Origin: Escherichia phage vB_EcoM_G2248
Length of the DNA stretch: 64,000 bases
Reading direction: 5' to 3' (one strand)
Sequence record: MK327932.1
Position 1 is the stretch's first letter. The number at the start of each line of letters is the position of its first letter. Shown one piece after another: positions 21,275-61,929 of this stretch. The position numbers were made by a program, and so were the translations under genes. The notes under the pieces were generated by a model, which searched no databases, was not told the origin of the DNA, and saw only the letters and a program-made list of their open reading frames with translations.

Positions 21275-21964
21275 TTAGTCGGTGTAGCTGGAGTCAAGGT
21301 CACACGCGATCATATAAGATACGGTTTCACTTGCCAGCCATACAGCCTTACGGCGAGTGAAGCTCAGTTTGTAATCGCCGAAGTCAGTAGCAACCAGTTT
21401 CATGTTATCTTTACGAATAAAGAAATGGAAGTCTGCGGTTCCGGTATATTCGCCCATATCAAGACAAAACATCTCATTAGGATTATTTTTGTCAATCTCT
21501 TCCCAACCTTTGATCATCAGACGACCATCAATCGGAAGAAATTCAAGGCGATCCACTTTAAGCTGATTGCTCATTTTCATAAGCTGTTTCAGATCGTCGT
21601 TGCTCAGTTCGTAATCTACATCGCTTGCGGGTGGAGTAACTCGGCCTTTCGGTGATACGATAGCAGCAGCACTAGCACCAGGGTAATTAATTTTCAGACG
21701 ATCATTAGACACACGAATGTTACCAGTGCGGTCATCAACCGTAATATCTGCTTCATCGCCTACCAGATTCAGAATACCCAGGAAAGAGTTAAGGTCATAG
21801 ATCCCGATTTCGTGTTCCAGTTCTTGATTCAGAGTCGCTTCACCATATACAACGTTTGTCATGTTTTTGGTGATCAGGACGTTTCCTTTTTTCAGGATGA
21901 TACCTGGGTTAATAGCGGAAAAGTTTTTCAGGGTAGCAATGGTTTCTTTAGTCAGTTTCATCAA
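21275..21964 (-). CDS. 45: sliding clamp gp45
   Basis: 229 aa; collinear with T4 gp45. Confidence 0.9.
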   Translation of the reverse strand: MMKLTKETIATLKNFSAINPGIILKKGNVLITKNMTNVVYGEATLNQELEHEIGIYDLNSFLGILNLVGDEADITVDDRTGNIRVSNDRLKINYPGASAAAIVSPKGRVTPPASDVDYELSNDDLKQLMKMSNQLKVDRLEFLPIDGRLMIKGWEEIDKNNPNEMFCLDMGEYTGTADFHFFIRKDNMKLVATDFGDYKLSFTRRKAVWLASETVSYMIACDLDSSYTD

Positions 21965-37159: not shown

Positions 37160-37187
37160 ATTATAGCATACTCCCTTCGCATGTCAA
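37160..37187 (-). promoter_or_regulatory. early promoter cassette, stem-loop enclosing the -10
   Basis: TTGACA-N16-TATAAT with GGGAGTA...TACTCCC inverted repeat around the -10. Confidence 0.5.
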
Positions 37188-38362
37188 GCACTAACTTTTT
37201 TCTTTACTGCTTTCACCTTCTGGCGAATTGCTCGAATCTCTTCGATCTCTTTTTCAGTCTCTTTAACAATTTCTTTGCGATTCTGAATATCTGTATCTAG
37301 ATTATCATCAAGTTTAGGCAGCATGTCAATCAAGAACTTTTTAAAGTCTTTCAGGTTTCGGATAACAGCACCTTCACCCATTACCGCCACGCCTACACCA
37401 TCCGGCAGGTCGCCAAACAGTTTAACCAGTTCAGACAGATGATCATGATCTTCTAGTGCTTCTTCCGGTTCAGATGGCAGTTCCACAAAGTAATAACGTT
37501 CATCATTGCTGATCAGGTGATACCAGCAAAGCCCAAAAGATTTAGGAGTATATTCTACACCACCAACTTCAACTGCGTCAACACTTCCGAAAGAATCTAC
37601 TTTAGTTACCTTAAATCCATGTTCCAGCGTTTTAATAATTTCAATAACATGACTGGATACGGTTTCAGTATTAAACCAATGAGGCAAATTATGTGGATTT
37701 GGCTTGTATCGTTCGCCTACTTTAAATCTCTGACCACGCTCTTGCATACGGACATATTCAACTCGCGTGATTTCCGCGAAGTATTCAAATTCGCCACCGT
37801 CAAACACAGAAGCCCATTGATCACAAAAACGATCTGCCTTAACAGTTTCACCTTTCGCGGTGATCATGGTAGCTGATCCGTGCAATTCTTCTTCAACTAA
37901 AAAGCCATATTCGACAAAATCAACAAGTTTCATAGCTTCTTTGTGATCTGGATCATGCTCTCCCCAGAATCGCTTAAATTCTTGCAAACCTTCTGGGGTA
38001 AACGAATAACATTTACCTTTTTCAAAGTAAGTCGGCATTGCATCCTCTTTCTTGTTCATCGCTTCGTATGCCTCTTTTGAGATGCGTTTAAAGTATTTAC
38101 GCTCATTGTGCATAATCATAGTAGCCCAATAATCAACAATATCATTAGCGGAATAAACTACATCTCCAGCTTCAATAGTAATAACATGACCGTGGTCATC
38201 TTTTTCTAATACTTTAAAGCCCTTTTCTACGATTTCAGCAACACGAATATGACCACGGCGCGAAGCATCGGTCAGAATAATTGAATAGCGAGAAAAGTCT
38301 AGAAACTCATCTTTACCGCCTTCACGGAATGCATAGCAATGACCTTCAAAGAATTTAGCCAT
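37184..38362 (-). CDS. paralogous family member F (three domain copies)
   Basis: 392 aa; repeated ERKYFKRI / FEYFAEI / ERYYFVEL motif blocks; K/E-rich tail. Confidence 0.5.
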   Translation of the reverse strand: MAKFFEGHCYAFREGGKDEFLDFSRYSIILTDASRRGHIRVAEIVEKGFKVLEKDDHGHVITIEAGDVVYSANDIVDYWATMIMHNERKYFKRISKEAYEAMNKKEDAMPTYFEKGKCYSFTPEGLQEFKRFWGEHDPDHKEAMKLVDFVEYGFLVEEELHGSATMITAKGETVKADRFCDQWASVFDGGEFEYFAEITRVEYVRMQERGQRFKVGERYKPNPHNLPHWFNTETVSSHVIEIIKTLEHGFKVTKVDSFGSVDAVEVGGVEYTPKSFGLCWYHLISNDERYYFVELPSEPEEALEDHDHLSELVKLFGDLPDGVGVAVMGEGAVIRNLKDFKKFLIDMLPKLDDNLDTDIQNRKEIVKETEKEIEEIRAIRQKVKAVKKKVSA

Positions 38363-38393: not shown

Positions 38394-38422
38394 ATCTTAC
38401 TACTCCCGTTTCATCATGTCAA
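38394..38422 (-). promoter_or_regulatory. early promoter cassette, stem-loop enclosing the -10
   Basis: TTGACA-N17-TAAGAT within GGGAGTAGTAAGATACTCCC. Confidence 0.5.
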
Positions 38423-38985
38423 GCGTTAAATGACTTTTGGATCTCTTTCAGTTCAGCTACTTTATCGGCGCTATATTTTGCTTGATGTTCCATGCGCTTA
38501 AGCTCACCTTTGATATAGGTTTCTAGCTTAGGTTTATTCTCAATCAGAAAATCTTTCAGGTCATCGGCATTTTTAAAGTATAGCTGATTATCAAAGCTAA
38601 AATCTTCCAGCGTCAATGATACCAAAGAAGACTTCGCAAACAAGTTAATCAGATCTTCCAGAGATTCTTCTTTCTTAATTGGTTTCATTTCTTCAAACTG
38701 CTTTTTAGTGATGCGTTTAAAGTATTTTCGCTCGTTTGCAGCAATCAGAACAGATGCACCTTCATACTCATGAGTTTCTACCAGATACACACGCCCCATC
38801 GCATCAACAGTGAGAACTTTAAAGCCGTTACAAAGCACGTCATACAAGAACTTATTATGTTGCGGACATCGTTTGATAAATTCTGCGACTGTTTCTGCAC
38901 TACGGAAAGTATAGTAACGACCTCGTTCAAAAACAGCGTCATTGGGTGACTTAACCGAATATACTTTGTATGTTTTCTGTACCAT
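38419..38985 (-). CDS. paralogous family member G
   Basis: start at internal ATG with GAGGATTATATT SD (MVQKTYKVY...); ERKYFKRI motif. Confidence 0.5.
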   Translation of the reverse strand: MVQKTYKVYSVKSPNDAVFERGRYYTFRSAETVAEFIKRCPQHNKFLYDVLCNGFKVLTVDAMGRVYLVETHEYEGASVLIAANERKYFKRITKKQFEEMKPIKKEESLEDLINLFAKSSLVSLTLEDFSFDNQLYFKNADDLKDFLIENKPKLETYIKGELKRMEHQAKYSADKVAELKEIQKSFNA

Positions 38986-38999
38986 AATATAATCCTCTA

Positions 39000-39272
39000 T
39001 CATTTCACTAATTGAACAGCACGGAACAGAATGCGGTCACACGGAAGCAGCATAAATTCCCAACGCGGATCAAAGTCTTTAGCGGTATATGTTTTCCCAT
39101 CAACCGAGATTTCACTTACATAACCAATAGGTGACACTTTAAGAACAGTAAATCCATTCTTGATGACTTCGTAGGTATCTTTCAATCCTTCGTAGTCATC
39201 CTCTAGGAAGTCTTTACGTGCTTGCTCAGATTTAAAAACATAGGCCACACCGGATTTAAACATCTTACGCAT
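39000..39272 (-). CDS. paralogous family member H (single domain, no tail)
   Basis: 90 aa; GFTVLKVSPIGYVSEISVDGKTY resembles the family core. Confidence 0.45.
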   Translation of the reverse strand: MRKMFKSGVAYVFKSEQARKDFLEDDYEGLKDTYEVIKNGFTVLKVSPIGYVSEISVDGKTYTAKDFDPRWEFMLLPCDRILFRAVQLVK

Positions 39273-52612: not shown

Positions 52613-53035
52613 TTATTGGTCTACCTTCAAAACAACCGCCGACATTTTACCCGCCAGTCGTTTTGGATTCTCTATAATCATTCGACAGCATAGACCGTGA
52701 TATGGCTTACCCTCTTCGATTAGATCTACTGTCATCCCGATCCACATGTTGCCGTCAGTAATTTCTAATCGATTAGGTCGGTCTTCCATTTTCAGGAAGT
52801 CGAAGATCTCCGGCAAACGAGTTTCTATCTTATTGAATAATTCCATTGTCTTATGTTCATCGATATGACGATCGGTTAGACGGTCGATCATATGCGGACT
52901 AAAGCGAATGAAAATATACTCACCGTAACCATCATTCAAGCACTTTTCTTTGATCTGCGCATTGGTTTTGCGCATTTCGGTTTCGAAGAATCTACGCAGC
53001 TTACTACGGCGAACATGTACGTTAATTGTTTCCAT
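52613..53035 (-). CDS. regB: RegB endoribonuclease
   Basis: start at internal ATG (METINVHVRRSKLRRFFE...) paralleling T4 RegB; RLEITDGN block. Confidence 0.6.
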   Translation of the reverse strand: METINVHVRRSKLRRFFETEMRKTNAQIKEKCLNDGYGEYIFIRFSPHMIDRLTDRHIDEHKTMELFNKIETRLPEIFDFLKMEDRPNRLEITDGNMWIGMTVDLIEEGKPYHGLCCRMIIENPKRLAGKMSAVVLKVDQ

Positions 53036-53039
53036 TTTA

Positions 53040-53375
53040 TTATCCTTTCTTAAACAAATTGCGAATCCAGTATACAAACGGGATTTCTTTAAACTTGAAT
53101 TTCTCTATAGTTAATTCTTTAGTAGCAAGATGAATACCATAAGCATCATGTGTCACGATATGCCATTTTCTATAGTCCAAATGTGAACAACCGTCTGGAT
53201 CTAGGTTAATAAGAGTTTCTCGCTCACTAGGATTATTTTTCCACAATTTTGTAATAGGATCGCACATAATTCGACCTAGCGTACCATGAATAATCTCACA
53301 ACGGTAAAGTTTTCCAGCAGTGAGATAGGCGCACCCGTCATAGTCGGTATAAACAAACACTTCTTTAATACTCAT
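53040..53375 (-). CDS. hypothetical protein (triplet family, CxHLD...W)
   Basis: track ORF overlaps promoter 53404-53432; ATG at 53373-53375 (MSIKEVF...). Confidence 0.45.
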   Translation of the reverse strand: MSIKEVFVYTDYDGCAYLTAGKLYRCEIIHGTLGRIMCDPITKLWKNNPSERETLINLDPDGCSHLDYRKWHIVTHDAYGIHLATKELTIEKFKFKEIPFVYWIRNLFKKG

Positions 53376-53403
53376 TTTAATACTCCTTTGTTTCGATGGG
53401 GGT

Positions 53404-53432
53404 ATATTACTACCCCCGTTTTGTTGTGTCAA
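53404..53432 (-). promoter_or_regulatory. early promoter cassette, stem-loop enclosing the -10
   Basis: TTGACA-N17-TAATAT within GGGGGTAGTAATATACCCCC. Confidence 0.5.
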
Positions 53433-53693
53433 CTACTTTTTCAAGATTTTTTTAATTGCGTTCCAAAGACCTTTATTCTCAGGTTGTTTTGGTTCTTCGA
53501 TCAGTGTCCATGTTCGACCGTCTAAGTGTGCACAATTTTTAAGACAAATAAAAATCTGGTGTCCCTTATCATCACGGATATAACCACTATTCGCAAATCT
53601 TTCATGTGGTGTATATTCATACAGTGTATTTGGTGTAATATACTTGCGGTTACTATAAGGTGTCATCACATACATCATGGTACTAACTCCCAA
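53433..53693 (-). CDS. hypothetical protein (triplet family)
   Basis: 86 aa; ...GYIRDDKGHQIFICLKNCAHLDGRTW. Confidence 0.45.
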   Translation of the reverse strand: MGVSTMMYVMTPYSNRKYITPNTLYEYTPHERFANSGYIRDDKGHQIFICLKNCAHLDGRTWTLIEEPKQPENKGLWNAIKKILKK

Positions 53694-53869
53694 CGATCAC
53701 CGCGAAGATGAGAACATCCACCATCAAGAAGTATCGTAATACGATAACCTATATCATCTTTGATGTAACCGATTGTCGGTGGATTTTCGTCGTCTCGTGC
53801 CGGGGTAAAATCATACATCTTTCCGGGCGTAATATCTTGTCCTTTATTACTATTGGTATAAACTTGCAT
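53675..53869 (-). CDS. hypothetical protein (triplet family)
   Basis: 64 aa; ...GYIKDDIGYRITILLDGGCSHLRGDRW. Confidence 0.45.
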   Translation of the reverse strand: MQVYTNSNKGQDITPGKMYDFTPARDDENPPTIGYIKDDIGYRITILLDGGCSHLRGDRWELVP

Positions 53870-53890: not shown

Positions 53891-54589
53891 CTAACCACGG
53901 GTATAGTGTTCCAGAACAACGGTCAGATGAATATATTCTAATAGATCTTTCCAAAAGTCAACATCTGGTTCTTCCGGCATACCGTTTTTCTTTGCCTCTT
54001 CACGCGCGAGTTTAACACGCTCGTAGAGATCTTTCAATTCTTCCCGCACATTATCAAAGGTTCTTTCTCCTAACTTACACGCTAAGATAGAAGAACGTCG
54101 CGCGAGCGGGAATTGTAGATCACCAGTTTGATAGATTTCAAGTAGCTGATAACCAACACGCAGAGCATGAGAAAGATCTTTCCAGTTACTGAAATACTTT
54201 TCAGATTTGGCTACCTGTTTCTTGAGATAACCAGACAAACCCCACATACCAACATGATAGAATTTATCGCGATGTGTTCGGATGTATTCCCATTCTCTGG
54301 AGGATTCGATCAACATGTTACTAGGCGCGTGCACCATATCAATAGCGCCGATATCACCTTTACATGCCAGATTGATAAACCGTTTTAGACTGAACATATT
54401 AACGTCAATATCGTCTTTGGTGTTCTTGATACCTTGACCGCTAGTGCTTTGGTCATAGTGTTCTTTCATCGATCCTAAGATAATTTCTTTCGCAGTCGGA
54501 ACAAAGATACCACGATAATCTTTATCGGAATTTTCAGTATCAAGGCCGTATAAGTGAGATCCGAAGACCATTTTAACCATTGTATGCAT
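53891..54589 (-). CDS. nucleotidyltransferase-fold protein (Pol-beta-like minimal NTase)
   Basis: 232 aa; hG[GS]x9-13DxD signature FGSHLYGLDTENSDKD, downstream acidic DIDV, helical C-terminal half. Confidence 0.5.
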   Translation of the reverse strand: MHTMVKMVFGSHLYGLDTENSDKDYRGIFVPTAKEIILGSMKEHYDQSTSGQGIKNTKDDIDVNMFSLKRFINLACKGDIGAIDMVHAPSNMLIESSREWEYIRTHRDKFYHVGMWGLSGYLKKQVAKSEKYFSNWKDLSHALRVGYQLLEIYQTGDLQFPLARRSSILACKLGERTFDNVREELKDLYERVKLAREEAKKNGMPEEPDVDFWKDLLEYIHLTVVLEHYTRG

Positions 54590-54675: not shown

Positions 54676-55092
54676 TTAGAGAGATTCGGTAAAGGTACGA
54701 GCGATAACATCACGTTGCTGGTCTGGAGTCAGACTATTGAAGCGCACTGCGTAACCAGAAACGCGAATTGTAAGCTGCGGGTACTTCTCAGGATTAGCAA
54801 CAGCATCCAGAAGAAGGTCGCGACTCATCACATTGATATTCGCGTGCTGACCACCTTCGACAACCGGAGCACCATTATCTACAATCACCGGACGGAAGCT
54901 AGTTGTGTGCAGTGCCAGCGAATCGACGTCTTCTTCGGTGATCACATGGTCTTCTGCGAAAGTTTTACTAACAATTACTTTAGCGCCGATCAGTGCTTTC
55001 GGTTCGGATACCAAAATCATAGGCGCGAAGTGTCCACCGATAATAGTACCTTTATGCTCACCTTTCATGATTTGAATTGCTTTAAATTCCAT
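54676..55092 (-). CDS. autonomous glycyl radical cofactor (GrcA/YfiD-like)
   Basis: 138 aa; C-terminal glycyl-radical signature [32 protein letters not shown]. Confidence 0.8.
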
Positions 55093-61900: not shown

Positions 61901-61929
61901 ATCTTACTACCCCCGTTTCATGTTGTCAA
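61901..61929 (-). promoter_or_regulatory. early promoter cassette, stem-loop enclosing the -10
   Basis: TTGACA-N17-TAAGAT within GGGGGTAGTAAGATACCCCC. Confidence 0.5.

Follow-up and report, generated by a model that had tools for sequence, protein, structure and literature searches.

In the genome of Escherichia phage vB_EcoM_G2248, three adjacent genes between nrdC.11 and regB, here called A, B and C, encode anciently diverged members of one phage-restricted protein family. We analyzed a stretch of 64,000 nucleotides of this genome (sequence record MK327932.1; hereafter the window), in which the three open reading frames (ORFs) fill exactly positions 53040-53869 of the minus strand, the strand that carries nearly all genes of the region. 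A 2-kb query around the triplet matched 58 phage records full-length at 90-99% DNA identity, and the phage belongs to Krischvirus (RB49-like, T4-type). The genes themselves are already known as deposits labeled hypothetical and clustered in two PHROGs, and the shuffling of ORFans in Krischvirus has been described. What is new is the grouping of the three proteins into a single, hitherto undescribed domain family whose fold is predicted with confidence, together with the recognition of the nrdC.11-regB slot as a variable array of that family.

One domain family in three adjacent genes

An earlier note on this DNA, made from the letters of the sequence, had described the three adjacent ORFs as small paralogs that share one domain beside regB, and had proposed multiple alignment, structure prediction and a survey of relatives as checks. 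The comparisons bear the description out. In BLASTP comparisons, A and B are 40% identical over 63 amino acids (E 5e-13), A and C are 31% identical over 67 amino acids (E 2e-4), and the match between B and C is confined to the C-x-H-L-D..W block (E 0.002). The triplet is present, with all three genes intact, in 58 of the 58 related phage records. Homology of all three proteins, C included, is settled by profile matches. The PHROG 6261 profile finds A at 1.3e-28, C at 1.1e-37 and B at 6.3e-6, and the PHROG 15978 profile finds B at 6.9e-61 and A at 1e-7. An independent hidden Markov model (HMM), built from 52 family members that each share less than 45% identity with A, B, C and P0002 (the divergent ortholog of C), scores A at 67, B at 78 and C at 53 bits, compared with 10.3 bits for the best of 900 shuffled sequences. 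The three motif blocks that the note had seen in all three proteins are complete in A and B, but C has only the third (CSHLDYRKW) and lacks the 'TP' and 'GYI(K/R)DD' elements; it retains the N-terminal stretch V-Y-T-x-Y-x-G-x-x-Y-L-T-A-G-K-L-Y. The three genes are as follows.

53675-53869, minus strand: gene A, 64 amino acids, a bare domain of about 60 amino acids predicted to form a beta-barrel (MQVYTNSNKGQDITPGKMYDF...CSHLRGDRWELVP)
53433-53678, minus strand: gene B, 81 amino acids, the domain plus a basic amphipathic tail of 20 amino acids (EEPKQPENKGLWNAIKKILKK)
53040-53375, minus strand: gene C, 111 amino acids, the domain at residues ~3-76 (its variable loop being longer), followed by a C-terminal extension of 35 amino acids

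The annotations of GEC-3S and RB49 give the same starts for A, B and C (RB49p097, p096 and p095, respectively) and label all three 'hypothetical protein'. A 130-amino-acid form of C with a TTG start, which appears in a mechanical ORF list, is too long. The stop codon of A (TGA) and the start codon of B (ATG) overlap as ATGA, which suggests translational coupling of the two genes, and each of A, B and C is preceded by a Shine-Dalgarno sequence with GGAG at normal spacing, that of A lying 9 nt upstream. The basic tail of B has a hydrophobic moment of 0.72. The extension of C ends in a conserved hydrophobic tail, KFKFKEIPFVYW(I/L)RNLFKKG, which is kept in the orthologs P0002 and P0047 with barrels that are just 37-39% identical.

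A, B and C are real genes under purifying selection within alleles. Pairwise ratios of nonsynonymous to synonymous substitution rates (dN/dS) are about 0.1-0.25 overall, with 0.06-0.27 for A, 0.1-0.25 for C and about 0.2 for B against the divergent Skers allele. It would be hardly credible that the ORFs are non-functional and their similarity a product of chance or of decaying duplicates. Such an explanation would agree with the fact that every annotation reads 'hypothetical', but it has to contend with ORFs intact in every one of the related genomes, with dN/dS of 0.1-0.25, with HMM scores of 53-78 bits against at most about 10 for shuffles, with a confident predicted fold and with correct Shine-Dalgarno spacing.

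Some database records give C a more specific label. It is called 'endoribonuclease' or 'putative endoribonuclease' in MT478991 (011D4), MK962753 (JK32) and MW748999 (Skers), and in KP182 (OM337876) an unrelated gene of 93 amino acids upstream of regB is labeled 'RegB-like RNA endonuclease', at a locus where the family HMM finds nothing. The Pfam scan gave no match of C to the RegB family (PF10715) or to another nuclease family, and the labels on both C and the KP182 gene look like annotation spill-over from the neighboring regB.

No fourth copy of the domain was found elsewhere in the 64-kb window by tblastn and HMM searches. A candidate at 2582-2839 (HMM E 0.08) was dismissed as unrelated in sequence and helical by eye, and a weak tblastn match of A at 37994-38074 falls within another repeat family. 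The window also holds a second paralog family, formed by the adjacent minus-strand ORFs 37184-38362 (392 amino acids) and 38419-39003 (194 amino acids). The 194-amino-acid protein aligns to three separate segments of its larger neighbor (E 6e-9, 2e-7 and 0.02), and the latter is therefore an internal triplication of a domain of ~95-120 amino acids.

Word-indexed searches yielded close relatives only, a locus search with A alone returned one Krischvirus contig, and the family was collected with an exhaustive profile search at a cut-off of E<=1e-3. It comprises 144 cluster representatives, most of which are 58-70 amino acids long. Conservation was counted in an alignment of 63 family members, with residues numbered as in A. 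The family consensus is MKVKTxYxxxxYITAGKxYx(~12)IxDDxGxxIxIxxxxCAHLxGxxWExVE, and its signature can be written T-x8-Y-I-T-A-G-K-x-Y ... D-D-x-G ... C-A-H-L-x-G-x-x-W-E-V-V. Mean identity within the family is 23%. The sole invariant residues (63 of 63) are Y19, within G-K-x-Y, and W60, before the last strand, and A, B and C have both; T5, T14, K17, I36 and H54 are each conserved in at least 90% of members. The domain is usually acidic, with a median net charge of -4 and a median isoelectric point (pI) of 4.8. Some proteins consist of the domain alone, others (P0021, P0023 and P0034) repeat it two or three times within one chain, and in yet others it forms the N-terminal part, joined to C-terminal regions that are unrelated.

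PHROG 6261 matches 61 and PHROG 15978 matches 50 of the 63 aligned members. The two clusters are kept apart in that resource though they represent one domain family, with A and C falling in the former, B in the latter and cross-matches between them, and neither has a function, fold or description attached. Scans of A, B, C and the 63 relatives against Pfam, NCBIfam and PADLOC gave nothing above threshold, and a sequence-profile search of PDB returned chance-level matches only, the best being dipeptidyl peptidase 4 (DPP4) at E 0.12. Pfam DUF6501, itself a family of unknown function, has weak matches in 6 of the 63 relatives (best E 0.0017) and none in A, B or C; literature searches on DUF6501, on the locus tags and on SH3-like early proteins found nothing. 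Sequenced carriers of the family include Krischvirus, Vibrio phages of ~135-141 kb, T1-like coliphages and a Pectobacterium phage, in which the copies are hypothetical or unannotated, and a further carrier is a contig with a T7 gp5.9-like neighbor gene. No family member bears a named function or a Pfam domain. Since every named member is a hypothetical protein of a phage and contigs with a member reach 171 kb at most, the family looks confined to phages.

The earlier note had also taken the triplet for a recent tandem duplication, and here the comparison gives a different picture. No DNA-level similarity is detectable between the A, B and C copies, protein identity is only 31-40%, and each has closer kin in other phages than next to it: B ranks 14th among the family members nearest to A, and for C, A ranks 31st and B 52nd. 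The lack of similarity between copies at the DNA level, together with paralogs that are not each other's nearest relatives, indicates that the duplication is old. The A-B-C order between RlaP/nrdC.11 and regB is also present in a diverged metagenomic lineage (L017/L018), and in contig L019 RlaP is followed by A-like (59%) and B-like (45% identical) genes before the contig ends.

Predicted fold and conserved residues

The domain is predicted to be a five-strand beta-barrel of about 60 residues with SH3-like topology, outside every solved family. The AlphaFold2 model of A computed from the 63-sequence alignment reached a predicted local distance difference test score (pLDDT) of 96.1 and a predicted template modeling score (pTM) of 0.80, with the five models concordant, and a run on eight aligned sequences reproduced the secondary structure with lower agreement among models. 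DSSP assigns strands to residues 2-4, 19-23, 33-37, 43-47 and 61-63 of the model and a helix-like turn to residues 52-55; there the C-x-H-L motif (C-S-H-L in A) is predicted to form a short 3-10 helix of one turn preceding the last strand. SH3-like small barrels have five strands, the last of which is preceded by a 3-10 helix. The predicted model has the same order of elements as these folds, namely five antiparallel strands with the 3-10 helix between strands 4 and 5, within a similar ~60 residues.

In a Foldseek search of PDB, SH3, Pif1-SH3 and Tudor domains rank first, all as non-significant matches (E 0.5-1, TM 0.38-0.47), and structure matches in BFVD are to uncharacterized phage proteins only. 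Neither the SH3 motifs (ALYDY/WW/PxxY) nor the aromatic-cage motif of Tudor domains is found in the domain, which has no sequence relation to these families. A glyoxalase/FosA (VOC) fold was rejected, as the alignment to glyoxalase I is limited to a hairpin of 29 columns (E 0.5-1) and the model is without the long helix; one relative matches FosA models at E 0.001 or weaker.

The domain had been noted as possibly metal-binding, which the alignment does not substantiate: there are no four aligned Cys/His ligand positions. Cys52 is present in 55 of 63 members (87%), the others having Ser or, in one case, Asp at this position. His54 is present in 57 of 63 (90%), with Tyr in its place in Skers B and in the divergent C allele (ortholog P0002). 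We regard a small Cys/His metal-binding domain spread by recent tandem duplication as very unlikely. The frequency of C-x-H, an additional Cys at position 10 in 41% of members (C among them) and a total of at least four Cys and His in 36 of the 63 domains would speak for it. However, C10, C52 and H54 occur together in just 18 of 63 with no fourth aligned ligand position, A has a single Cys and a single His, natural alleles show Tyr for His and Ser for Cys, and neither A, B and C nor the 63 relatives have a zinc-family match in Pfam. The recent origin that this explanation includes is likewise contradicted by the age of the duplication given above.

The nrdC.11-regB slot evolves much faster than its flanks

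The genes and elements that surround or separate A, B and C are listed below, from the upstream side.

54676-55092, minus strand: vs.6/GrcA-type glycyl-radical cofactor gene, upstream of nrdC.11
53891-54589, minus strand: nrdC.11, the upstream flank, an RlaP-type nucleotidyltransferase gene by annotation in relatives, 21 nt upstream of A
53376-53432, minus strand: B-C intergenic regulatory cassette, from promoter scan, RNA fold and GEC-3S annotation
52613-53035, minus strand: regB, the downstream flank, a site-specific RNA endonuclease of 140 amino acids by annotation in relatives, ATG at 53035

The slot between nrdC.11 and regB evolves by cassette replacement and recombination between paralogs, at a rate much higher than that of its flanks. 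In comparison with L017, the window has 92% identity in RlaP, 91% in regB and 93% in vs.1, whereas identity is 75% in A, 57.5% in B and 37% in C. In L003, the part of C that codes for the barrel has been replaced, yet the DNA is nearly identical at either boundary, namely the promoter/stem-loop on the upstream side and the final ~66 nt of C together with the start of regB on the downstream side. L002 (45-296, ENA ERZ16268176 scaffold_28569) has a single A/B hybrid gene, P0012, of 83 amino acids. Over its first ~38 codons it matches A at 97% identity, and the remainder resembles the Skers-type B allele, with the crossover falling within the shared GGTTAYATC...GATGATA codons (GYI[KR]DD), and the sequence upstream of its Shine-Dalgarno is unlike the nrdC.11 end of the window.

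The number of copies in the slot varies as well. In L011 (2665-4360, ENA ERZ27260015 k141_230232), a distant T4-like contig with a regB 51% identical to that of the window, six domain copies lie in five consecutive genes from RlaP to regB; a tblastn search with its two-domain protein P0021 matched no sequenced phage in the collection searched. Two adjacent domain copies are found in the T1-like phage W011D. nrdC.11/RlaP bounds the array in the window phage and in diverged lineages, with PF10127 (RlaP) matched in L011, L017 and L019 and PF10715 (REGB_T4) in related contigs. The family is absent from the regB neighborhoods of T4, JS10, Morganella MP1, Klebsiella KP182 and Aeromonas 31.2.

Upstream of C, a promoter scan found a sigma-70-type early promoter (10/12 match) with TTGACA at 53432-53427, a 17-nt spacer and TAATAT at 53409-53404, and the B-C promoter is also annotated in GEC-3S. 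A polyG/polyC stem-loop at 53398-53417 (GGGGGTAGTAATATACCCCC; RNA fold -15.3 kcal/mol) overlaps the -10 box and is followed by the Shine-Dalgarno AGGAG. This cassette is near-identical in L002 and L003 despite the differing downstream barrel. Judged by its sequence, the B-C element fits the definition of a promoter-early stem-loop (PeSL) cassette, that is, a promoter, a polyG/polyC stem-loop, a Shine-Dalgarno and the ATG of an ORFan, located within a hyperplastic region. PeSL cassettes of RB49 and phi1 were shown to drive modular ORFan shuffling (Arbiol et al. 2010, PMC2839356); they likewise consist of a strong sigma-70-like promoter and a stem-loop over the -10 box, then Shine-Dalgarno and ATG. 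regB and nrdC.11 are not mentioned in that paper. In the slot described here, the exchanged piece is the barrel of C, bracketed by a conserved PeSL on one side and conserved downstream sequence on the other, and the downstream recombination boundary lies inside the tail of C instead of at a second PeSL. The early promoter/stem-loop cassette in front of C probably drives transcription of C and regB together, and A and B are probably co-transcribed with nrdC.11.

The ribosome-binding site of regB lies inside the 3' end of C, where it overlaps the last codons. A single T/G difference is found there at position 53041, where the minus strand of the window reads GGATAA and L002, L003 and L007 read GGAGAA. 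It changes the Shine-Dalgarno of regB from GGAU to GGAG, the cleavage motif of RegB, and shifts the stop of C, which ends in ...KKG* in the window and in ...KKGE* in the other form. The regB Shine-Dalgarno of RB49 is GGAU (PMC3014915), as in the window.

About ten PeSL-like elements are present on the minus strand of the window, with first hexamers at 61929, 60118, 53432, 45308, 43232, 33537, 26088 and 2832 and less clear elements at 21297 and 15231. The stem-loop of the element at 61929 (GGGGGTAGTAAGATACCCCC) is nearly identical to that of the element at 53432, and because of this the two, ~8.5 kb apart, are potential recombination partners.

Possible functions and relation to known systems

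We tentatively favor, at somewhat less than an even chance, the reading that the three proteins act early as binding modules without enzymatic activity, with host proteins as the most likely targets. It is suggested by the small size of the domain, in which no catalytic motif is apparent, by a predicted barrel of a binding type and by modular repeats and fusions, together with early promoters, phage restriction, multicopy arrays and allele replacement amid conserved flanks. Under this reading, the barrel would be produced early in infection, and its conserved face (T5, Y12, T14, G16, K17, Y19, D38-D39, C52, H54, L55 and W60) would serve a common binding or structural role. Paralog-specific specificity may come from the hypervariable loop between strands 2 and 3 and from the differing C-terminal tails, a basic amphipathic helix in B and the conserved hydrophobic tail in C. 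If the targets are host defense or housekeeping proteins, the array would act as a diversifying set of host-takeover or counter-defense inhibitors.

Several observations weigh against this reading. Our searches found no named homolog, solved structure or literature bearing on function, and the SH3-like assignment rests on predicted topology with insignificant Foldseek matches in PDB. The conservation of polar residues (K17, H54, T14 and D39) at 23% mean identity would fit one common small ligand equally well. A Tad2-like match in one fusion falls under the Pfam threshold (20.4 versus 25 bits), and synteny with Vs.4 of T4 is positional only. A Shine-Dalgarno with GGAG is common, being found at 36 of 141 mechanical ORFs on the minus strand, and we discarded its enrichment as uninformative.

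A common small ligand is central to an alternative that we consider unlikely, in which oligomeric barrels act as a sponge and bind a nucleotide-derived immune signal through the K17/Y19/H54/W60 face. The action would be akin to that of Acb2/Vs.4, Tad1/2 or Acb4, with the paralogs covering different signals. Invariant or near-invariant aromatic and basic residues in so divergent a family agree with this, as do the position of the array in the slot that holds the cGAMP (cyclic GMP-AMP) sponge Vs.4 in T4 and JS10, and multicopy and tandem-repeat architectures, which would suit multivalent binding. One member, P0105, carries a weak Tad2-like segment as a fusion (E 7.8e-4); that match, however, does not reach the gathering score and spans 32 of the 73 positions of the profile. 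The domain has no similarity in sequence or fold to known sponges, and the conserved residues are possibly just the core and turns of a tiny barrel. An identity with Acb4 was rejected. The gene for P0105 (L010 222-942, Logan SRR22387882_8415992) adjoins a T7 Gp5.9-like gene of the RecBCD inhibitor family.

The genomic position of the array raises another explanation, in which the three proteins would be accessory factors linked to RegB or to RNA, modulating the RegB endonuclease, the ribosomal protein S1 or the nucleotidyltransferase of RlaP type. RNA binders are known among SH3-like barrels. Four lineages (RB49-like, L017, L011 and L002/L003), with RegB proteins that are 51-91% identical, have the array between RlaP and regB, and the contig of a fifth, L019, ends before regB. 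C and regB share a promoter, with the regB ribosome-binding site held in the 3' end of C. We nevertheless think this quite improbable. The family occurs in phages without a nearby regB (T1-like W011D, Vibrio phage helene and the gp5.9-neighbor contig), and other regB loci, those of T4, JS10, MP1, KP182 and Aeromonas 31.2, are without the family. The acidity of the domain, with its median pI of 4.8, is unfavorable for general RNA binding, and the 'putative endoribonuclease' labels on C look like spill-over.

As a feature, the triplet is ordinary for T4-type genomes, in which ORFan paralogs populate the hyperplastic early region. Its interest lies in the union of two PHROGs and ~140 sequence clusters into one foldable family that is without a Pfam entry or solved structure, and in the slot of Krischvirus-like phages as a hotspot of swapping, fusion and multiplication amid flanks that are 91-93% identical. 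Genes that are engaged with host variation typically show such a pattern. The family provides a short list of candidates for host-takeover or anti-defense screens in a genus used in therapy cocktails.

By position, the array can be compared with the slot of T4 (L008), where vs.5-vs.4-vs.3 lie between vs.6 (GrcA, L008 5558-5920) and regB, the place taken in Krischvirus by nrdC.11 and A-B-C. Vs.4 of T4 is an experimentally proven cGAMP sponge against the cyclic oligonucleotide-based antiphage signaling system (CBASS) and forms hexamers (PMC10097602). Homology to T4 vs.3, vs.4 or vs.5 was rejected, as the family HMM finds nothing in T4 58000-67000, and the profile search of PDB chains, expected to include the Vs.4 crystal structure, gave chance-level matches only (best E 0.12). 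The Vs.4 sequence looks helical by eye and the domain is predicted to be all-beta. A wider reading, doubtful as a whole but a real possibility, is that an expandable array of two to six copies between nrdC.11/RlaP and regB, built from a new phage-specific domain with copies also elsewhere in T1-like, T7-like and Vibrio phages, would form diversifying counter-defense inhibitors or signal sponges analogous to Vs.4/Acb2. What A-B-C share with Vs.4/Acb2 and the T4 genes vs.3-vs.5 is the same genomic slot, filled in both cases with small early accessory genes.

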